Virus record (IMG/VR): IMGVR_UViG_3300028531_000001
Location: 12,865-76,864 of that record
DNA from: a virus
Lineage: Duplodnaviria > Caudoviricetes
Strand: one strand, 5' to 3'
DNA length: 64,000 bases
The position numbers and the translations under genes are program-made. The notes beneath the pieces were generated by a model, which ran no database searches, was not told the DNA's origin, and was given only the letters and a program-made list of their open reading frames with translations. Every line of letters starts with the position of its first letter. Positions within the stretch are counted from its first letter, which is position 1. Below are positions 27,383-42,030 of this stretch, piece by piece.

Positions 27383-27585
27383 AAACCTTGATCGAAATCG
27401 CACTGTCGGCCTGGTGCATGATTGGCCTGATACTGGCAGTCCTCGCCTCCCTCGCCTTTATGCTCTGGGTCGGGGAGAAGCTAATCGACTTCATTCTGAT
27501 CCGACTCCAACTGAAGCGTGAATTCTTGGCATTCGCCTATCAGCGAATCCGATCGAGACAGCAGACGCAGGACACCACCCGATGA
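27379..27585 (+). CDS. Small membrane protein
   Basis: GTG start, TM IALSAWCMIGLILAVLASLAFMLWV. Confidence 0.55.
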   Translation: MKTLIEIALSAWCMIGLILAVLASLAFMLWVGEKLIDFILIRLQLKREFLAFAYQRIRSRQQTQDTTR

Positions 27586-27824
27586 CCGCCGACCAATTCG
27601 CCGCCCGATTCTCCACACGCCTCTCCGAACTGATCGACGACCGGGGGCTCAGGCTGCACGACGTGATCGACGCCTCGGGGCTGTCGCAGAACGTCGCCGG
27701 GGCGATCTCCGGCGGCCGACGCGAGCCGACGTTGCGGGAGGCGATGGTGCTGGCGCGGGCGTTGGGCGTGTCGCTGGACGTGCTGTGCGAGGGGCTGCTG
27801 GACTTCGAGTGGGAGGGGGAGTGA
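27582..27824 (+). CDS. XRE-family HTH protein (cro-like)
   Basis: RLSELIDDRGL...DASGLSQNVAGAISGGRREPTLREAMVLARALGVSLDVL. Confidence 0.8.
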   Translation: MTADQFAARFSTRLSELIDDRGLRLHDVIDASGLSQNVAGAISGGRREPTLREAMVLARALGVSLDVLCEGLLDFEWEGE

Positions 27825-28132
27825 TGAATATGCGACGCAAGTCGGCTGTGAAATGGACGCACCTTCCCAGTGGAATTTCGGCCGTGGCCGAAGCCGATCG
27901 GGATGTTCGTCTTCCGGGAGTGTCAACGATTGCCAAGAAGTTGCTCGCCGCTCGGGTCTGGGCGTCAACGCAAGAGCGACCAAAGGGGAATCGACGCTCC
28001 TACGTGTGCTGCCCATATCAGGCCGTGAAGGACCACAGAAACGGCCAGGTGCTCATGGAAGATCCGGCACGTTTTCTGAGTGGCGACCTCGACCCGCTGC
28101 TCAGACTAGCCCTGAAGGAGGCCAGGCCGTGA
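27824..28132 (+). CDS. Truncated class I release factor (RF2/PrfB-like) C-terminal fragment lacking GGQ
   Basis: SAVKWTHLPSGI ~ RF SAVRITHIPTGI; RRSYVCCPYQAVKDHRNG...LSGDLDPLL ~ RF2 IRSYV..PY..VKD.RTG...LDGDLD.FI; GGAGG RBS. Confidence 0.75.
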   Translation: MNMRRKSAVKWTHLPSGISAVAEADRDVRLPGVSTIAKKLLAARVWASTQERPKGNRRSYVCCPYQAVKDHRNGQVLMEDPARFLSGDLDPLLRLALKEARP

Positions 28133-28317
28133 GCCAGCGAACGGCGGCGGAGATCCGGCGGGAGATCGAGGAACTCACGCGGCAACACGACGATCGGCTG
28201 GGGCGATCGACCAATCGTGCTCTCCAAGCGTACCTGATGCGGACGCACGATGAGACTTTCGGCCGGCTGCGGGCCGAACTCGCGGCAGCCGAGCGGCGGG
28301 AGGTGGGGAATGGGTGA
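28129..28317 (+). CDS. Small helical hypothetical protein
   Basis: GTG start with AGGAGG RBS. Confidence 0.55.
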   Translation: MSQRTAAEIRREIEELTRQHDDRLGRSTNRALQAYLMRTHDETFGRLRAELAAAERREVGNG

Positions 28318-28660
28318 GATCGACGACATCCAGGCCAAGATCAAGCAACTTGACGACCTGGAGTCCTGGCTGGAAGCCTCCGGGTCGGATTACGAAGACG
28401 GATGGTCTCCCACCTTCGCGGGCGTGATTGCGATGGTCAACGGCTACGCCATCTGGTTGGGAGAACGGGCCGAGCGGGGAGGCCGACCGAAACGAGAGAC
28501 GTCGGCTTGGCTGGACGCCGAGATCGCCGACGTGCGGCGGACACTCGGCGCTTACGAGGCGGACTGGGATGAGTCGCCGCTGCTGGAGGCTGTGCGGAAG
28601 GCGGCCCAGGATTACATCGCGGAACTAGAAGCCGAGCGGCGGGAAAGGGGCGAATCATGA
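28310..28660 (+). CDS. Hypothetical protein
   Basis: 116 aa; ends in the shared IAELEAE block. Confidence 0.6.
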   Translation: MGEIDDIQAKIKQLDDLESWLEASGSDYEDGWSPTFAGVIAMVNGYAIWLGERAERGGRPKRETSAWLDAEIADVRRTLGAYEADWDESPLLEAVRKAAQDYIAELEAERRERGES

Positions 28661-28902
28661 GCACCGCGACGAAGATCCCCCACATCGAGGCCAGCCTGAA
28701 GGGGCGGCGGGTCACCATCACGTTCGACCGGCACCCCGACACGATCGAGGGCGTGACCGTGCTCGGACAGGTCTGGATCGGGAGCGACGCGTACCTGCGG
28801 GTGGCCTATTCGGACGGGCGACGGAGTTCGATCAAGGCGTCGGCGATCCTGGTGATCGAGGAACTTGAGGTGAGGGAGGACGAGGAGGTCAGCCGGGAAT
28901 AA
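28657..28902 (+). CDS. Small beta-barrel protein, possibly Sm/Hfq-like
   Basis: Short helix then GRRVTITF..TIEGVTV..YLRV..SSIKASAILVI. Confidence 0.55.
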   Translation: MSTATKIPHIEASLKGRRVTITFDRHPDTIEGVTVLGQVWIGSDAYLRVAYSDGRRSSIKASAILVIEELEVREDEEVSRE

Positions 28903-31753: not shown

Positions 31754-32677
31754 ATGAGCATCGCCCCCTACGACCGCGACACCGAAATCGAAGCCTACGA
31801 CGACGAAGAGACGCAGGAGGTCAACCTCGGCGGGACCGCGATCGAGCTTGCGACGCGTGCCGAGATCGCCGCACAGGTGGCGGTGGCTCGCCAGTATCCG
31901 AGGTCGATCAAGCGATTCCTTAACACGGCACGGGAAATGGCCACGCTCGACCCGCGCATGGCCGAGGCTTGCAACTACGCGGTCCCTCGCGGCGGCAAGA
32001 TCATCGAAGGGCCGTCGGTCCGACTCGCCGAGATCGCCGCTTACGCCTGGGGCCACCTGAGGGTCGAGGCGAAGATCGTTTCCGAGGATGAGCGGTTCGT
32101 GACCGCCAGGGGCGTGTGCCATGACATGCAGACCAACGTCTTCGTGGCTTACGAGACCAAGCGCAAGATCAGCTACTCCAACGGCCGCCGATACAACGAC
32201 GACATGATCGCCACGACGGGCAACGCGGCGGCTTCCATCGCCCTGCGCAACGCGATCTTCCGGGTCATCCCCAACGCCCTGATCAAGCCGCTGGCCGACG
32301 AGGCGAAGATGTGCGCCAAGGGGGACGTCAAGACGTTGTCGGCCCGCCGAAGCGCGTTGCTCGAGCACTTCGGCCGGCTCGGCGCCAAGCCGGAGGACGT
32401 CTACCGCGTCCTCGGTGTTGCCGGGGTGGAGGACATCACCCTCGATCACCTCCTGACCATGCAGGGGATCGCCGCGGCCATCAAGGACGGCGAGACGACC
32501 TTCGAGTCTGTCTTCACCGTGCCTGTCACGGTGGCCAGCAAGTCCGAGGGAATCACGGCCACCCTGACGGCCAAACTCGCCGAATCCCCCGCCCCTTCGA
32601 AGGCCGAGCCCGCCCCGGCCGCGACGCCGAAGGTCGAGCCGGCGAAGAAGACCCGCGAGCCCGGCGAGGACGGCTGA
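31754..32677 (+). CDS. Putative single-strand annealing protein, partner of YqaJ
   Basis: A..YPR...C.YAVPRGGK.IEGPSVRLAE..A..WG motif; position after the exonuclease; acidic/Pro-rich tail. Confidence 0.65.
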   Translation: MSIAPYDRDTEIEAYDDEETQEVNLGGTAIELATRAEIAAQVAVARQYPRSIKRFLNTAREMATLDPRMAEACNYAVPRGGKIIEGPSVRLAEIAAYAWGHLRVEAKIVSEDERFVTARGVCHDMQTNVFVAYETKRKISYSNGRRYNDDMIATTGNAAASIALRNAIFRVIPNALIKPLADEAKMCAKGDVKTLSARRSALLEHFGRLGAKPEDVYRVLGVAGVEDITLDHLLTMQGIAAAIKDGETTFESVFTVPVTVASKSEGITATLTAKLAESPAPSKAEPAPAATPKVEPAKKTREPGEDG

Positions 32678-32751
32678 ACCACCGAGGGGCCTGCGGCGTG
32701 GGTCGCGGGCCCCCTGCTCTTTCCCAAGACCGATCGGCACCGAGGTTCCCC

Positions 32752-35700
32752 ATGCACCAGCCGAGTATCCGAGCGTCGATCATCACCCGCAGGACGTACT
32801 GCCGACCTCTCGACGACGAGGGGACCGTATTCGAGACCTGGCCGCAGGTGATCGACCGGGTCAAGTCGCATCAGCGATGGCTCTGGGAGAACGCCCAGGG
32901 GTTCAGCCTGTCTCCGAGTCAGGAAGACGAACTGGCGGAACTATCCGGCCTCATGCTCGACCGGAAGTTGATGCCCGCGGGCCGGACCCTCTGGCTCGGC
33001 GGGACGGACATCGTCAAGCGGCGGGCCGCATCCAACTACAATTGTTCGTTTCTCAAAACGAAATCGGTCCACGACATCGTCGACGCGTTCTGGTTGCTGC
33101 TCCAGGGCTGCGGCGTCGGGTTCAAGATGGAGACGGGCGGGCTCAGCGGATTCAACAGGAAACTCGAAATCCAGGTCGCCCCCTCGACCCGGACCGACGC
33201 CAACGGGCGGGACACGAACGAGGAGCACTTCGACTCCGAGAGCGGCGTATGGACGATCAACGTCGGCGACTCTGCCGAGGCGTGGGCCAAGGCGGCCGGC
33301 AAACTCGTCGTCGGAAAGTTCCCCGCGAAGGTGCTCCGGATCGAGACGACCGAGGTCCGCCCGGCCGGGACTCGGCTCAAGGGTTACGGCTGGATCTGTG
33401 CTGGCGACTCGCAACTCCTGAAGGCGTTCACGGAGATCGCCGGCATCCGCAACCGCAAGGCCGGGAAACTGCTCACGAAGCTCGACGTGCTCGACCTCGT
33501 GAACTGGCTCGGGACCGTGCTCTCGACCCGCCGCTCCGCCCAGGCCGCCCTCATGGATTACGGCGACAAGGAGTGGGAGGACTTCGCCACGGCCAAGGCC
33601 CCCGGCTATTGGGAGAAGAACCCGCAGCGGGCCCAGAGCAACAACGGCCTGATGTTCTGGGAGAAGCCGAGCCTTCGTGAAATCCGCTCGATCTTCAATA
33701 TGATGGTCGAGCACGGGGGGGGCGAACCGAGCTTCAACAACGCGGCCGAGGCCAGGCGTCGGGCCCCTTGGTTCGACGGTTTCAACCCCTGCGTGACCGG
33801 AGACACCTGGGTCCTGACCACCGAGGGGCCGAGGAAGGCTGTCGACCTCGTCGGGCAACCCTTCACGGCGATCGTCGATGGCCTGCCGCACGACTCGACC
33901 GACCGCGGGTTCTACCCGACCGGCGAGAAGATGGTCTACCGGGTCGAGACCGATCGGGGGTACTCGTTCGAGTGCACCGACAACCACCAGATTCAGGAGG
34001 TCTATTCGCTTACCGCGAAGTCGCGTCGGACCCGATGGACGGAACTCAAGGATCTCAAGGTCGGAGACCGGATCAGCCTGCACAACCACGAGGACGCCGC
34101 GTGGTCAGGGGCCGGGAGCCGCGAGGAGGGCTGGCTGGTCGGCAGCCTTCTCGGAGACGGTGTCTTCATGGGTGGGAATGTCGAGACGGCCCGCCTGTCC
34201 TATTGGGGGCCGACGAAGGAAGTGATGGCCGGGATCGCCCGGGATTCGATCCTCTCGACCGTTAAGGCCCGATCGGACTGCGGGCGACGATCCCCCGGCG
34301 GGGTTCAGGAGATCAAGTATGATCGAATGAACCTCAGCAGCACCGGCCTGCGGTCGATGGCCGAGTCCTTCGGGCTAACCGCGATCAAGACCCTGGGGGA
34401 TGAGGTCGAACATACGTCGTCGGACTTCCACGAGGGGTTCCTCTCGGGATGGTTCGACGCCGACGGATCGGTGTGCGGCGGTCAGTCACACGGCGTCTCG
34501 GTCCGCCTCACCTCGGTCATACTGAAGAACCTCTATGCGGCTCAACGCATGCTGGCCCGGCTCGGGATCATCTGCAAGGTCTACAAGGATCGCCAACCCG
34601 AAGGACCTCGCACGCTCCCGGACGGCAAGGGCGGGGTCAAGGACTACAACTGCCAGGCCGGTCACGAATTGATCATCTCGGGCAGGAGCCTCGCCAGGTT
34701 CGCGGAACGTGTTGGCTTCCGGCATCCGGCCAAGAGTAAGAAGCTCGCGGCCAGGATGGACGCATACCAGCGAGGGCTCAACCGCGAGCGATTCACGGCC
34801 CGGATCAAGTCGATCAGGCCGGTCGGCGTCCAATCTGTCTACGACTGCACGATCCCGACGGCCAGCCAGTTCGACGGGAATGGGGTGAACCTCCACAACT
34901 GTTTCGAAATCATCCTGGCCGACCGTGGTTTCTGCAACCTCTTCGACATCAACGTACTGCGGTTTGTTGATGACCATCATGGCCTGCACCGGGCGATCTA
35001 TTTGGCCGGCAGGGCGAACTACCGCCAGACGCTCGTGGACTTGCGTGACGGCATCCTCCAACACTCGTGGCACGAGAACAACGAGTTCCTGCGGCTCTGC
35101 GGCGTGGGCCTGACGGGGCTCGTGACTCGGCCCGACCTGGACGACTATGCGCTTCGGCAACTCCGCAACTCGGCGACGGCCGGGGCCTACTCGATCGCGG
35201 ACGAACTCGGGCTGGAGCGGCCCAAGAACGTCACGACGATCAAGCCGTCGGGCACGGTCTCGAAGATCATGGACTGCACCGAGGGGGCCCACAAGCCTCT
35301 CGGCCGGTACATCTTCAACAACGTCAACTTCTCCAGGCATGACCCGCTCGTCGGCATGCTCACCGACGCCGGATACGACGTGCTGGACAATCCCACCGAC
35401 CCGGCGGCCGTGCTGGTCAAGATCCCGACCTCGTGGCCGACCGTGCCGTTCGGGCTCTCCCCCGCCGGAGTCCCGGTCAATCATGAGTCGGCGGTCGATC
35501 AGTTGGAGCGATACCGCAAACTCCAGAACAGCTACTGCGATCAGAACACGTCGATCACCGTCAGCTACGACCCGTCGGAAGTCCCGGCGATGTCGAAGTG
35601 GTTCGACAAGAACTGGGACAGCTACGTCGGTGCCGCCTTCCTGTTCCGCAACGACCCCACGAAGACAGCGGCCGACCTCGGGTTCGCGTATCTCCCGCAG

Positions 35701-35826
35701 GAGGTGGTCGACGCGGAGACGTACCGGAAGTACGAGAGTCGATTGAAGCCGATCGACATCGACGCGGCGTCGGGTGAGGACCTGATCGACGCGGACTGCT
35801 CGACCGGCGCGTGCCCGGTCCGGTGA
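32752..35826 (+). CDS. nrdJ: Class II (B12-dependent, monomeric RTPR-type) ribonucleotide reductase with intein
   Basis: PAGRTLW, YNCS, LLQGCGVG, QRAQSNN, NP|C.EI split by an intein, LCGVGLTG, TTIKPSGTVS, C-terminal CSTGACPVR; ATG at 32752. Confidence 0.93.
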   Translation: MHQPSIRASIITRRTYCRPLDDEGTVFETWPQVIDRVKSHQRWLWENAQGFSLSPSQEDELAELSGLMLDRKLMPAGRTLWLGGTDIVKRRAASNYNCSFLKTKSVHDIVDAFWLLLQGCGVGFKMETGGLSGFNRKLEIQVAPSTRTDANGRDTNEEHFDSESGVWTINVGDSAEAWAKAAGKLVVGKFPAKVLRIETTEVRPAGTRLKGYGWICAGDSQLLKAFTEIAGIRNRKAGKLLTKLDVLDLVNWLGTVLSTRRSAQAALMDYGDKEWEDFATAKAPGYWEKNPQRAQSNNGLMFWEKPSLREIRSIFNMMVEHGGGEPSFNNAAEARRRAPWFDGFNPCVTGDTWVLTTEGPRKAVDLVGQPFTAIVDGLPHDSTDRGFYPTGEKMVYRVETDRGYSFECTDNHQIQEVYSLTAKSRRTRWTELKDLKVGDRISLHNHEDAAWSGAGSREEGWLVGSLLGDGVFMGGNVETARLSYWGPTKEVMAGIARDSILSTVKARSDCGRRSPGGVQEIKYDRMNLSSTGLRSMAESFGLTAIKTLGDEVEHTSSDFHEGFLSGWFDADGSVCGGQSHGVSVRLTSVILKNLYAAQRMLARLGIICKVYKDRQPEGPRTLPDGKGGVKDYNCQAGHELIISGRSLARFAERVGFRHPAKSKKLAARMDAYQRGLNRERFTARIKSIRPVGVQSVYDCTIPTASQFDGNGVNLHNCFEIILADRGFCNLFDINVLRFVDDHHGLHRAIYLAGRANYRQTLVDLRDGILQHSWHENNEFLRLCGVGLTGLVTRPDLDDYALRQLRNSATAGAYSIADELGLERPKNVTTIKPSGTVSKIMDCTEGAHKPLGRYIFNNVNFSRHDPLVGMLTDAGYDVLDNPTDPAAVLVKIPTSWPTVPFGLSPAGVPVNHESAVDQLERYRKLQNSYCDQNTSITVSYDPSEVPAMSKWFDKNWDSYVGAAFLFRNDPTKTAADLGFAYLPQEVVDAETYRKYESRLKPIDIDAASGEDLIDADCSTGACPVR
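33790..34899 (+). mobile_element. Intein with LAGLIDADG homing endonuclease (370 aa) in nrdJ
   Basis: Starts CVTGDTWV, ends VYD...NGVNLHN, +1 residue is the NPC Cys; LVGSLLGDG and FLSGWFDADG motifs. Confidence 0.93.
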
Positions 35827-38208: not shown

Positions 38209-39430
38209 CGTGGCTTATCGCTGGGGGAAGATCAACGACGGGGATCCATTCCACCGGATCACCAAGGACCTGCTCAGGCCGCTCCTGACGGCCGACCTAG
38301 GCAAATACGACGGGTGCCTGATCGCCAGCCTGATCGACGAGAGTTGGACGAAGCCCTACGTGGAGTCGAAGCGGCGGCCGAATGCGGAGGTCGAACCCGT
38401 CCCATTCCGGGTGCCGTGCAGCCAGATCGCCCGCGACTTCGGCTGCCCCAAGCAGCGGATCAGCAAGGCGAAGCGGACCCTGATCGCCCGCAGGATCATG
38501 ATCGAATTGCCCGACGGGACGGTCCTCTTCAACAAGAATGTCGACGACTGGATCGGCCTGGACGGCCAGCCCCAGTTCACCGAAGGGCAACTCCAATTGT
38601 TTATACGGGATGGGATGGCATCGTCGAAGAAAACCAAGACGACACACAACTGTGTGACGAAAAAGGGGCGGTCGAAGCCAAACGACACACTCCAGGGTGA
38701 CGAAACCGGGAAATCGGGCGGCCCCGACACACAACTGTGTGACGTTCTGCATGCCAGCGAGAATCCCGTATCCGGCGACACACAACTGTGTGACGCTCGA
38801 CCGGAAAACGACACACAACTGTGTGACGCAACGACACACTCGGCTGTGTCGTCCCACTATATAGGAACGCGCCCGTCAGAAGACTCAGAAGACTTCAATA
38901 CAAGAGGTGCTACGCACCAATTCGCGGGCGGGCGCGATGCCGGCGGCGGGGAGACCATCGGGGAGGGGCCGAGGAAGGTGCCCGACTTCCCCGCGGTGCT
39001 GCCCAGGCCGACCGACGTCCACCCCGGCCCACACGAGCCGGACTGGGAGCGGGTCGACTTCGCCCGGGGCCTGGCGATGAAGCTCTGGATCAACGACCGG
39101 CTGGGGCTGGACATCCGGGCCCACGCCCGCCAGTGGCCGAGCGAGTGGTTCGTGAGGGTCGTCAAGCGGCTCTGGGCCCAGCAGGCGTACCCGCACAGCT
39201 TCAAACTCCTGCGGACCATCCTGAACGGCTGGGACCGCAAGGGCGGGCCCGACGCGGGGCCGGAGGACGACTACGACGACAGGCTCGAGTTCATCCCGCA
39301 GTCGAAGCGGGGAGTCCTGCCCCTGTCCAAGCCGGGACCCAGGCCGACTTCGGATGACAAATCCCTGAATGAGTTCATCCCCATATCCAAACGATTCGCC
39401 CAAGCCCAGGCCAACGGGAGCCCACTGTGA
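38209..39430 (+). CDS. Lambda O-like replication initiator containing the origin
   Basis: RITKDLLRPLLTADLGKYDG...SQIARDFGCPKQRISKAKRTLI...LFNKNVDDW (Phage_rep_O pattern); start approximate (GTG near 38209). Confidence 0.8.
38641..38851. repeat. Replication origin iterons GACACACAACTGTGTGACG (4 perfect, 2 degenerate)
   Basis: Perfect copies at 38641, 38726, 38777, 38810; degenerate at 38684 (15/19) and 38833 (13/19); core CACACA-AC-TGTGTG is an inverted repeat. Confidence 0.9.
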
Positions 39431-42030
39431 GCCGCGAACCCAGGAACAATCATCCGCTTTCCGGCAAGATGCCGCCGTCGAATGTCGCCGTCGAGGCCGA
39501 GGTGCTCGGGGCGTGCCTGATGAGCCGGGAGGCGATCGACGAGGTAGCCGACGTGCTCAGGTCCGAGGACTTCTTCCGGGCGTGGCACGGGGAAGTCTGG
39601 TCCGCGATCAAGGGGCTCTGGTCGAAGGGCGAGCCGGTCACAATCGCGTCGGTCGCCGAAGCCCTGAAGGGCGAGGACAAGGCCGCCGACTTCGCCTCGC
39701 TGGCCGAGATCACCGCGAACACGCCGCACTCGGCGGACGCCCGGTACAACGCCGAGATCGTGAGGCAGAAGGCGGTCGGCCGGGAATTGATTCGCTGGTC
39801 GAACGAGGTCCTTGCGGCGGCCTACGCCCAGCAGGACACGAGCAACGCCCAGGTCCAGGACGCCCTCTCCGGTTTACTCAAGATCGCGGACCGCGGGGCG
39901 ACCTCCCGGGTGTATGACGCCCCCGCGTTCATGGAGATCGCCTGGAACGGACTCCAGGAGCGACGCCTCGGCAAGGCGACTGGGCTGAAGATCGGATTCC
40001 CCCAACTCGACGAACTGATCGGCGGGTTCGCGAATCAGCAACTGATCATCGTCGCGGCCAGGCCGGCGATGGGCAAGACCGCGTTCGCCATGCGGATTGC
40101 CGAGGCGTTCGCCGTAGACCAGGGACTCCCGACGCTGATGTTCAGCATGGAGATGGGGGTCGAGGAATTGGCGGACCGGCTGTGGAGCGGCCGCTCCCAG
40201 GTCATGGCCGACAAACTCAAGAACCCGATGTACCTGAACGACTCGGACGAAAACAGGCTCGGCAAGGCCCACCGGGACCTGGCGGATTCGGCCCTCCACA
40301 TCGACGACACCGCGGCCCGGAGCGTGGAGCAGATCGCCGCGACCGCCAGGCGTCATGCCGGCCGGGGCGGGCTGAAGGCGGTGATCGTGGACTATCTGCA
40401 ATTGATCGAGGAGGACTCCGATCGGTCCAGCCGGCAGGAGGAGGTCGCCCGGATCACCCGGTCGTTGAAGGCCCTCGCCAAGGAACTCAACCTGCCAGTC
40501 GTGGCGCTCTCGCAGTTGAACCGCAAGAGCGAGGATCGCCCGGATAAGAGGCCGAAGCTGTCGGACTTACGGGAGTGCGTCACGGCCGACACGACGATTT
40601 ACTGCTCGAGGACCGGTCGTATCCGGACCGTCGGCGAGTACGTCTCGTCCGGCGTCGGGCCGTCGGTCTACGGACTGGACGATCGGGCATCGTCGGGGCC
40701 GTGGAAGGTCGGGACGTCCAAGGCCGAGCCGTTCTGGTCCACCGGGGTCAAGCCCGTGTTCCGAGTCAGGACGGCCACCGGCCGGCAGATCCGCTGCACC
40801 GCGAACCATCCCCTCCGGACGATCGGCGGGTGGAAGCCCCTGGAAGAAATCCGGGTCGGCCAGCGGATCGCCTCGCCCCGATTCCTCCCCGAGCCATCGT
40901 CGGCGGCCGACCCGATGCACCGCGACGAGGCGAGGCTGCTGGGCTACCTGATCAGCGACGGCACGTATCTCCCGCAGCGGAGCGTCGGGTATGTGAAGGC
41001 CGACCCCGCGATGGTCTCCGAGGTCGAGCGGATCGCGAGGGATCGGTTCGGGATCGAGGCGAAGGACCATGCGTGCCGGGGGCCGGCGAGGCAGATCGAA
41101 CTCACCCGGAGGGATTGCGGCCCCGGCGGGAACCCGGTCATCGAGTGGCTGAAGTCGCTGGGGATTCACGGCCAGAAGGGCCACCGGAAGACGATCCCGG
41201 ATGCCCTGCTCTCCTCGCCGAACGAGATCGTCTCCGAGTTCATGGCCACGCTCTGGGCGGGCGACGGGTGCGTGACGAGGCGGAAGCACGGCGGGTACGC
41301 CCTGAAGTTTAGTTCCACGAGCATGCGGCTCCTGGAGCAGATGCAGATGCTCCTGCTCCGGTTCCGGATTGTCTCGGTGCTCGGCAAGCCCGGCCGCAAC
41401 ACGAAATCGACCCGGGACATCGCGTTGCTCTCGATCTCGGACTCGAGGCAGGTCATCCGCTTCTCGGAGCACTTCGCCCTCCCCGGCCGGAAGGGCGAGC
41501 AACTCGAGTACGCCGCCGACGAGTGCCGGATGATGGACGAGAACTCGCACATCGACCGGATGCCCATCGAGGCCACCGCGATGATCTCGTCGGCCAAGCG
41601 GGAGGCCGGACTGTCCTGGTCGGGCCTCGGCTACCGGTGCCAGGGCAAGGAGATCCACCCCGGCCGATTCGCCGAACTGGCGGACCGGCTCGGCCACCGC
41701 GGGATGCAGTCGGTCGGGGCGGCGGACGTGCTCTGGGACAAGATCGTCTCGATCGAACCCGACGGCGAGGCCGAGACCTTCGACGTTCGGGTCCCGGGCA
41801 TCCACAATTTCGTCGCCGGCGGGATCTTCGCCCACAACAGCGGCGCGATCGAGCAGGACGCCGACAAGGTGATCCTACTCCACCGTCCCGAATACTACGA
41901 CCCGACCGACATGCCCGGGACCGCCGAGGTGATCGTCGCGAAGAACCGCAGCGGGCAGACCGGGACCGTGCGGCTGAGGTGGGACAAGGAGACAACCAGA
42001 TTCTCCGTCGATCCCGACGAGCAGTTCTGA
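39427..42030 (+). CDS. dnaB: Replicative DNA helicase with intein
   Basis: PPSN..VEAEVLGACL, LIIVAARPAMGKTAF, FSMEM, IVDYLQLI, LSQLNR, SDLRE|SGAIEQDAD, IVAKNRSG.TG. Confidence 0.96.
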   Translation: MSREPRNNHPLSGKMPPSNVAVEAEVLGACLMSREAIDEVADVLRSEDFFRAWHGEVWSAIKGLWSKGEPVTIASVAEALKGEDKAADFASLAEITANTPHSADARYNAEIVRQKAVGRELIRWSNEVLAAAYAQQDTSNAQVQDALSGLLKIADRGATSRVYDAPAFMEIAWNGLQERRLGKATGLKIGFPQLDELIGGFANQQLIIVAARPAMGKTAFAMRIAEAFAVDQGLPTLMFSMEMGVEELADRLWSGRSQVMADKLKNPMYLNDSDENRLGKAHRDLADSALHIDDTAARSVEQIAATARRHAGRGGLKAVIVDYLQLIEEDSDRSSRQEEVARITRSLKALAKELNLPVVALSQLNRKSEDRPDKRPKLSDLRECVTADTTIYCSRTGRIRTVGEYVSSGVGPSVYGLDDRASSGPWKVGTSKAEPFWSTGVKPVFRVRTATGRQIRCTANHPLRTIGGWKPLEEIRVGQRIASPRFLPEPSSAADPMHRDEARLLGYLISDGTYLPQRSVGYVKADPAMVSEVERIARDRFGIEAKDHACRGPARQIELTRRDCGPGGNPVIEWLKSLGIHGQKGHRKTIPDALLSSPNEIVSEFMATLWAGDGCVTRRKHGGYALKFSSTSMRLLEQMQMLLLRFRIVSVLGKPGRNTKSTRDIALLSISDSRQVIRFSEHFALPGRKGEQLEYAADECRMMDENSHIDRMPIEATAMISSAKREAGLSWSGLGYRCQGKEIHPGRFAELADRLGHRGMQSVGAADVLWDKIVSIEPDGEAETFDVRVPGIHNFVAGGIFAHNSGAIEQDADKVILLHRPEYYDPTDMPGTAEVIVAKNRSGQTGTVRLRWDKETTRFSVDPDEQF
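40576..41838 (+). mobile_element. Intein with LAGLIDADG homing endonuclease (421 aa) in dnaB
   Basis: CVTADT...TFDVRVPGIHNFVAGGIFAHN|S; LLGYLISDG and FMATLWAGDG motifs; inserted at RE|SG. Confidence 0.95.

Follow-up and report, generated by a model that had tools for sequence, protein, structure and literature searches.

Release factor RF2 (prfB; TIGR00020; structures 1GQE, 4V67 and 5MDV) is a protein of about 365 amino acids. Its domains 2 and 4 form a codon-recognition superdomain in the 30S decoding site, and its switch loop (residues 315-323 in E. coli, with Trp319 stacking on A1492) links the decoding site to how domain 3 is positioned in the peptidyl-transferase centre (PMC5378476). The DNA studied here is a 64,000-nt stretch (below, the window; positions 12,865 to 76,864) of IMGVR_UViG_3300028531_000001, an uncultured tailed-phage record of 76,864 nt from IMG/VR with an estimated completeness of 83%. 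It carries a gene for a protein of 102 amino acids, P0001, which matches the strands that follow the catalytic GGQ loop of RF2, helix alpha7 and domain 4, but differs from RF2 in being small and basic and in lacking the GGQ, the PCRF part and most of the switch-loop region. We tentatively propose, at a probability that we put somewhat below even, that P0001 is a non-catalytic, stand-alone RF2 derivative that occupies the A-site or decoding side of the ribosome, or rRNA, and tunes A-site events early in infection.

ArfB (YaeJ), ICT1 and PrfH are likewise reduced release-factor derivatives, and these act outside canonical termination. All three keep a complete domain 3 with the catalytic GGQ; ArfB and ICT1 carry a basic C-terminal tail in place of domain 4, and PrfH keeps domains 2 to 4. 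Lacking GGQ, P0001 cannot be a peptidyl-tRNA hydrolase of their type. Precedents for release-factor folds that have lost the catalytic glutamine and are kept as ribosome binders or structural parts are found in Dom34/Pelota, the baeRF-1 families and the inactive bRF-PH copy of the mitoribosome that Burroughs and Aravind described in 2019 (PMC6514570). Dom34/Pelota and baeRF-1 are of the archaeo-eukaryotic type, however, and their aeRF1 fold is unrelated to P0001, while the bRF-PH copy is a mitoribosome subunit with a whole domain 3 (PMC6514570). None of these inactive relatives is a phage protein or has the architecture of a post-GGQ domain 3 joined to domain 4. A preliminary description of this DNA, made from the sequence alone, had known of no description of such a family, and our searches agree: neither Pfam nor PHROGs holds a family for the architecture of P0001, and no phage fragment with domain 4 and without GGQ is described in the full-text literature that we searched, including a survey of release-factor evolution (PMC6514570). 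The domain-3-only "RF-1 domain" families of PHROG (3122 and 20323) gave no match to P0001 or its eight relatives; these proteins match phrog_19918 (full-length RF2) alone, except for P0033, which matches nothing. Three members of the family are labelled "peptide chain release factor 2" or "release factor B" by the JGI (Joint Genome Institute) pipeline.

Relation of P0001 to the C-terminus of RF2

The gene, its ribosome-binding site and the parts of RF2 that we recognise in its product are as follows.

27824..28132, + strand: mini release-factor gene P0001, an open reading frame of 309 nt (102 amino acids plus TGA), homologous to E. coli RF2 256-363
27812..27816, + strand: Shine-Dalgarno-like GGAGG, found by direct sequence reading, 7 nt before the P0001 ATG
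27842..27895, + strand: beta-hairpin, residues 7-24, corresponding to the two strands after the RF2 GGQ loop (SAV+x+TH-x-P-x-G-I...); strands 7-13 and 18-24 in the model
27902..27970, + strand: counterpart of helix alpha7, shortened, residues 27-49, with the S-Q..N cap replaced and W46 invariant in the family
27971..27994, + strand: short Pro/Gly linker, residues 50-57, in the position of the RF2 switch loop (E. coli 315-323, with Trp319) and of the end of alpha7, as judged from alignment gaps
27995..28123, + strand: RF2 domain 4, residues 58-100 (RSYV..PYQ.VKD.R.G....L.GDLD.LL), the best-kept part

By all profile comparisons taken together, the homology of P0001 to the C-terminus of RF2 is statistically sound. 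The protein matches the NCBIfam prfB profile (TIGR00020) over positions 249-352 of 353 with 31.7 bits and E 7.9e-8, as against a curated cut-off of 370 bits for the whole protein, and the full-length RF2 PHROG (19918) with E 2e-5. As a single sequence it finds solved RF2 chains at E 1e-3, and a profile of seven family members matches solved RF2 structures at E 4.8e-12, covering residues 256-363 of E. coli RF2 (the last 108), compared with a poorer 5.6e-9 at best for RF1 structures. The match to Pfam RF-1 (PF00472; positions 31-116 of 116) stays at 17 bits and E 0.006, under the gathering cut-off of 35 bits, and the relatives of P0001 reach 13.5-19.5 bits there or do not match. Weak sequence matches to PrfH (release_prfH, E 0.02; solved PrfH structures, E 0.002 to 1.3) and to C12orf65 are confined to the hairpin-helix part. 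Since the GGQ of E. coli RF2 lies at 250-252, P0001 begins just past the catalytic loop and extends to the end of RF2.

P0001 has neither domain 1 nor domain 2 with its SPF stop-codon reader, and of domain 3 it lacks the first strand and the GGQ loop. The nine family members were compared column by column with 85 cellular RF2 C-termini. Besides GGQ and its flanking V/N/T, which are missing, the near-invariant C-Q and S-Q..N of the cellular proteins are replaced. Kept are T-H-x-P-x-G, the Arg of RSQ, several helix positions, R-S-Y, P-Y-Q, V-K-D-x-R-[TN]-G and L-x-G-x-x-D-x-L; T, H, P and G of the hairpin are retained in all or nearly all of the nine. The domain-4 motifs of P0001 read RRSYV, PYQ, VKDHRNG and LSGDLDPL, as compared with IRSYV, PY, VKDxRTG and LxGDLDxF in RF2, the matching columns are conserved in every member, and R58, P64, V68, D70, G87 and D90 are the invariant domain-4 positions of the family. 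In sum, residues that follow, flank or support the catalytic loop were given up, and the hairpin and the core of domain 4 were retained. Alignment gaps place the loss between the two parts: in the clade to which P0001 belongs (clade A, see below), the end of helix alpha7 together with the switch loop is some 14-19 residues shorter than in RF2. The family-invariant Trp (W46 in P0001) lies 12-17 residues before the RSY motif, as against 5 in RF2, and was considered as a counterpart of RF2 Trp319; neither the MAFFT nor the HMMER alignment gave a positional match.

These results bear out much of the preliminary description. It had given the coordinates of the gene, its own GGAGG and its coupling to the neighbouring genes, for which translation and overlaps came out as claimed, and sequence reading and alignment agree with its account of a start just past the GGQ loop, of missing domain 1 and SPF motif and of in-frame upstream codons that read GGGV. 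The motifs that it listed as retained or replaced are so in the column comparison, and the match to release-factor profiles is significant for prfB/RF2 and below threshold for Pfam RF-1. It had also called P0001 the C-terminal half of RF2: a stand-alone, GGQ-less RF2 derivative it is, but its extent is closer to the last 30% (domain 4 and the part of domain 3 after GGQ), and most of the switch-loop region is deleted as well.

An AlphaFold2 model of P0001 based on an alignment of 27 sequences reached a predicted local distance difference test score (pLDDT) of 81; with an alignment of only four sequences the score was 53 and the model uninformative. The larger model contains a hairpin (7-24), a helix (27-49), an ill-defined linker of low pLDDT (50-66) and the strand and helix elements of domain 4. 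Its residues 1-54 can be overlaid on RF2 251-306 at Z about 5, with a root-mean-square deviation of 2.5-3 A. In a Foldseek search of solved structures, the top matches were all release factors, at E 0.02 or worse; these weak E-values arise because the two lobes are oriented differently or free to move.

All nine members are basic, with a net charge of +3 to +9 and an isoelectric point of 9.6-10.4 (about 10 for P0001), whereas the net charge of the corresponding segment averages +2.2 (sd 2.0) in the 85 cellular proteins. This strong basicity would also suit an RF2-derived scaffold that has been recruited for an unrelated job, such as binding of phage RNA or DNA or service as an adaptor, with the kept motifs reflecting folding constraints only. 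Such a history would fit the long branches of the family tree and the removal of all functional loops of RF2 (GGQ and switch loop), and the hairpin-helix lobe has weak structural matches (Z 3-4) to double-stranded RNA-binding domains and hibernation factors, alongside release factors. The matches outside release factors lie within the noise range, however. Moreover, the best-kept residues are those near-invariant in RF2 domain 4, belonging to surface and functional motifs more than to a generic hydrophobic core. We regard recruitment to an unrelated job as unlikely.

No PCRF (PF03462), RF-1 or prfB match was found elsewhere in the 76.9-kb record at E-values up to 10, so that P0001 stands alone, with no second release-factor piece in the phage record. 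The same result speaks against a two-part RF2 in which P0001 would be the C-terminal piece and domains 1 and 2 plus GGQ would be encoded elsewhere. That arrangement could be imagined given that domain 4 usually pairs with domain 2 and that the record is only 83% complete by estimate. But the neighbourhoods of the relatives hold no gene for a release-factor N-terminus either, and with a break inside domain 3 past the catalytic loop and the switch loop deleted, a working reassembly is hard to envisage; a split factor is extremely unlikely.

Family, boundaries and selection

Eight relatives of the same size as P0001 (102-127 amino acids), from seven other phage-like contigs, came out of a search through 1.84 billion representative proteins and of two indexed searches that covered 5.8 billion clusters. 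P0001 forms clade A (102-104 amino acids) with P0002, P0029 and P0003, which are 76%, 57% and 54% identical to it, respectively. Clade B comprises P0018, P0030, P0031, P0032 and P0033 (111-127 amino acids; about 30% identity), which have a longer linker. All eight relatives start 5-8 residues ahead of the SAV..TH strand and are not random-length fragments, and genes of clade A have the start codon and ribosome-binding site at the matching place, with GGAGG or AGGAG in three homologous loci. P0001 is a member of a small family that phages carry and whose N-terminal boundary is fixed. The ratio of nonsynonymous to synonymous substitutions (dN/dS, Nei-Gojobori) is 0.146 for P0001 and P0002 and 0.197 for P0018 and P0030, approximate values given that dS is near saturation (1.1-1.2). 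Between the window and the contig locus that encodes P0002 (L002), the 76% identity of the two proteins is the highest among shared early proteins, the others reaching 38-68%. Taken together, these data argue firmly for purifying selection on P0001 and not for a decaying fragment, as the preliminary description had held when it set simple decay aside.

A different origin for the gene, as the functionless 3' leftover of a once complete prfB that the phage had acquired, could draw on its GC content at third codon positions (GC3) of 0.65 as against 0.90-0.93 in its neighbours, suggesting foreign origin, and on the codons just upstream of the start, which read ...GGGV in frame; the six-frame prfB match begins 9 nt 5' of the ATG. 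The GGG stems from the ribosome-binding site, however, and the upstream in-frame stretch is an out-of-frame reading of the preceding regulator gene. A remnant is also at odds with a dN/dS of 0.15-0.2, with the conservation of length, start and ribosome-binding site at 76%, 57% and 54% identity, with a second clade that has the same N-terminal boundary and with two diverged paralogues on one contig. The selection and boundary data largely refute this origin, which we consider very unlikely.

In a maximum-likelihood tree with the 85 cellular RF2 C-termini and an RF1 outgroup, both clades come out as monophyletic, and they join each other with a Shimodaira-Hasegawa-like approximate likelihood ratio (SH-aLRT) support of 94. 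The branches of the family are long. The tree fits one ancient truncation, and long-branch attraction could produce the same grouping.

Every contig long enough to judge is phage-like, with the family members in early or replication gene strings, and the genes on these contigs include Rad52, ThyX, integrase, terminase, portal, DnaB, beta-clamp, SSB and HNH. One contig, SRR30518537_696 (53,931 nt), carries two diverged paralogues, P0002 (L002 10001-10309) and P0029 (L006 5924-6235), which are 63% identical over 89 residues by BLASTP and lie in separate small-gene strings on opposite strands. P0003 directly follows a Pfam Volactin gene (actin-like, E 1.6e-34; L003 1-873) on a contig of 1.8 kb. 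Three loci of clade B (L004 256-501, L007 9825-10034 and L089 3188-3442) have a homologous small gene, of about 70-84 amino acids and without a known family, that runs about 34 nt into the start of the mini release-factor gene; its homologue in L090 lies about 2 kb upstream. No such overlapping upstream gene is shared in clade A.

Beyond these searches, a scan of reference genomes gave 531 matches, of which the best 80 were all full-length cellular prfB (31-41% identity); weak members resembling clade B may lie outside those 80. Among 50,697 phage records, tblastn against cultured phages found only matches of at most 33% identity, in unannotated records that resemble contamination with host RF2. 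The single match in an IMG/VR scan was a full-length cellular prfB adjoining aroE and coaE, and a scan of metagenome contigs for relatives of the mini release factor gave no match. Neighbours in the ESM Atlas are viral RF-1 domain clusters of 94-97 amino acids with scores of 0.84-0.85.

Other truncated RF2 forms occur in phage-like contigs as well. P0054 (L091 2378-2800; 140 amino acids; prfB E 1.7e-34) has a complete domain 3 plus domain 4 with GGR for GGQ, and its gene adjoins that of a sigma-70 region-4 protein; it alone also matches PHROG 3122 and 20323. P0025 (L092 183-458; 91 amino acids) and P0027 (L093 117-335; 72 amino acids) consist only of a basic helix and RF2 domain 4 and are encoded on short contigs with overlapping genes, where the upstream open reading frames show no similarity to release factors. 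Domain 4 is common to all of these forms, that is, P0054, clades A and B, and P0025/P0027, which represent at least three types of truncation.

Gene neighbourhood in the phage genome

P0001 belongs to a tightly coupled, co-directional run of small genes and overlaps the genes on either side.

27582..27824, + strand: XRE/Cro-type helix-turn-helix (HTH) gene, 80 amino acids (Pfam HTH_3, E 7e-5; PHROG transcriptional regulators)
28129..28317, + strand: gene of 62 amino acids, predicted helical, no family; its start overlaps the P0001 stop (GTGA)

The ATG of P0001 overlaps the TGA of the HTH gene (TGATG), and its own TGA overlaps the GTG of the 62-amino-acid gene. Farther upstream in the run lies a radical-SAM (QueE-like) gene, and downstream follow genes for a RecE-like exonuclease, a class II ribonucleotide reductase and DnaB, making this a typical early or replication region. 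Both the DnaB helicase and the adenosylcobalamin-dependent ribonucleotide reductase (39427-42030 and 32311-35826 of the window) seem to bear inteins, as matches to the intein N-terminal splicing region fall within both. A scan for promoters and terminators gave no useful signal. Fusion or frameshifting of P0001 with the upstream gene was considered and rejected, as the in-frame extension (from 27518) amounts to the HTH gene read in another frame, rich in Arg and without conservation.

The 62-amino-acid protein is 57% identical to the product of the gene after P0002 in L002. As a conserved downstream partner it was rejected: the 62-amino-acid genes of four loci are alike in size and homologous only between the window and L002. 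The HTH gene was rejected as a partner too, its L002 homologue lying two genes downstream of the mini release-factor gene. Across the loci compared, no neighbour is conserved throughout the family.

The GC3 of 0.65 in P0001 compares with 0.93 in the HTH gene (27582-27824) and 0.90 at 28657-28902. Several other early genes of the window also have a low GC3 (0.56-0.66), and this unevenness suggests that the early region is a mosaic of genes from different sources. Elsewhere in the window, 12928-14298 (- strand) encodes a protein of 455 amino acids with a prepilin-type N-terminal cleavage/methylation motif from near residue 105, which matches the GspG and ComGC pseudopilins and Verru_Chthon cassette protein D; these matches would fit a host from the Planctomycetes-Verrucomicrobia-Chlamydiae (PVC) group.

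Possible roles in translation

Without domain 2 and GGQ, P0001 should be able neither to read stop codons nor to hydrolyse peptidyl-tRNA. Its basic character and the kept domain-4 core suggest that it most likely still docks on the ribosome, on the side of the A-site and decoding centre or at rRNA. P0001 is made up of the hairpin and shortened alpha7 of domain 3, of domain 4 and of a short linker that stands for the switch loop, and in the mechanism that we propose it would act in the A-site region as an occupant and not as an enzyme; with the switch loop shortened, the domain-3 remnant would be unable to reach the peptidyl-transferase centre even with domain 4 docked. Early in infection, the protein could tune or locally block termination, rescue or re-initiation at overlapping stop-start junctions.

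Stop-codon usage narrows the form that such a role could take. Among 97 phage genes of a crude, composition-based gene call, 71 end in TGA (about 73%), 14 in TAA and 12 in TAG, and the phage itself would thus depend mainly on RF2-type termination. Because of this reliance on TGA stops, a role as general RF2 antagonist is unlikely. The preliminary description had inferred a release-factor mimic or decoy, and its version as a global antagonist of RF2 fits poorly. A local or conditional role is more plausible, be it at ATGA/GTGA stop-start junctions, on stalled ribosomes or in protection of RF2 or the ribosome.

Several observations weigh against P0001 as a ribosomal occupant. Domain 2, the usual single-sheet mate of domain 4, is missing, so that the docking surface may be incomplete, and the model gives no confident mutual orientation of the two lobes (predicted template modelling score, pTM, 0.44). 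A strong block of RF2-type termination would be self-harming at such a share of TGA stops, and the estimates of selection come from the nearly saturated dS values given above. The family is also very rare, with 9 members among about 15 billion proteins, and any role would be a niche one.

Alternatively, P0001, as a non-catalytic partial copy of an essential host protein that is under selection and is encoded among early accessory genes, might leave the ribosome untouched. As a decoy or sponge, P0001 would imitate the RF2 surface and titrate a defence effector, toxin, modifying enzyme or rescue adaptor away from the real RF2. Protection of RF2 would pay for a TGA-rich phage that leans heavily on this factor, and the truncation types found in phage-like contigs, at least three, all keep domain 4. 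The sites at which known partners bind are all missing, however, and this concerns ArfA, PrmC and RF3, which the preliminary description had named. RF3 and L11-stalk contacts involve domain 1 of release factors and PrmC requires the GGQ loop, both absent from P0001. ArfA contacts Trp319 and the domain-2 sheet of RF2 (PMC5378476), and P0001 has neither. For the defence effector, likewise suggested before, PADLOC gave no match, and no neighbour conserved across the family presents itself as a counterpart. We know of no defence system or toxin that targets RF2 domain 4, and we judge a decoy to be rather improbable.

If P0001 does occupy the ribosome, the family may have a wider meaning. Tailed phages that are rich in TGA stops and infect high-GC hosts might encode a new class of translation modulator, a catalytically dead "domain-4 module" of RF2 that binds in the decoding site in competition with RF2, rescue factors or tRNA. 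Early in infection, such a module would redirect termination, read-through or re-initiation where stop and start codons are coupled, or protect ribosomes or RF2 against a host defence. This generalisation is possible, though we hold it to be doubtful. To our knowledge, few natural protein inhibitors or mimics of release factors are known. Release factors are essential, and a selected, non-catalytic fragment of RF2 would be a natural probe of what the part made of domain 4 and alpha7 does by itself. Should the target of P0001 lie outside the ribosome, RF2 would probably have a partner not yet known; as it stands, it may represent a new route by which phages interfere with, or protect, termination and ribosome rescue.
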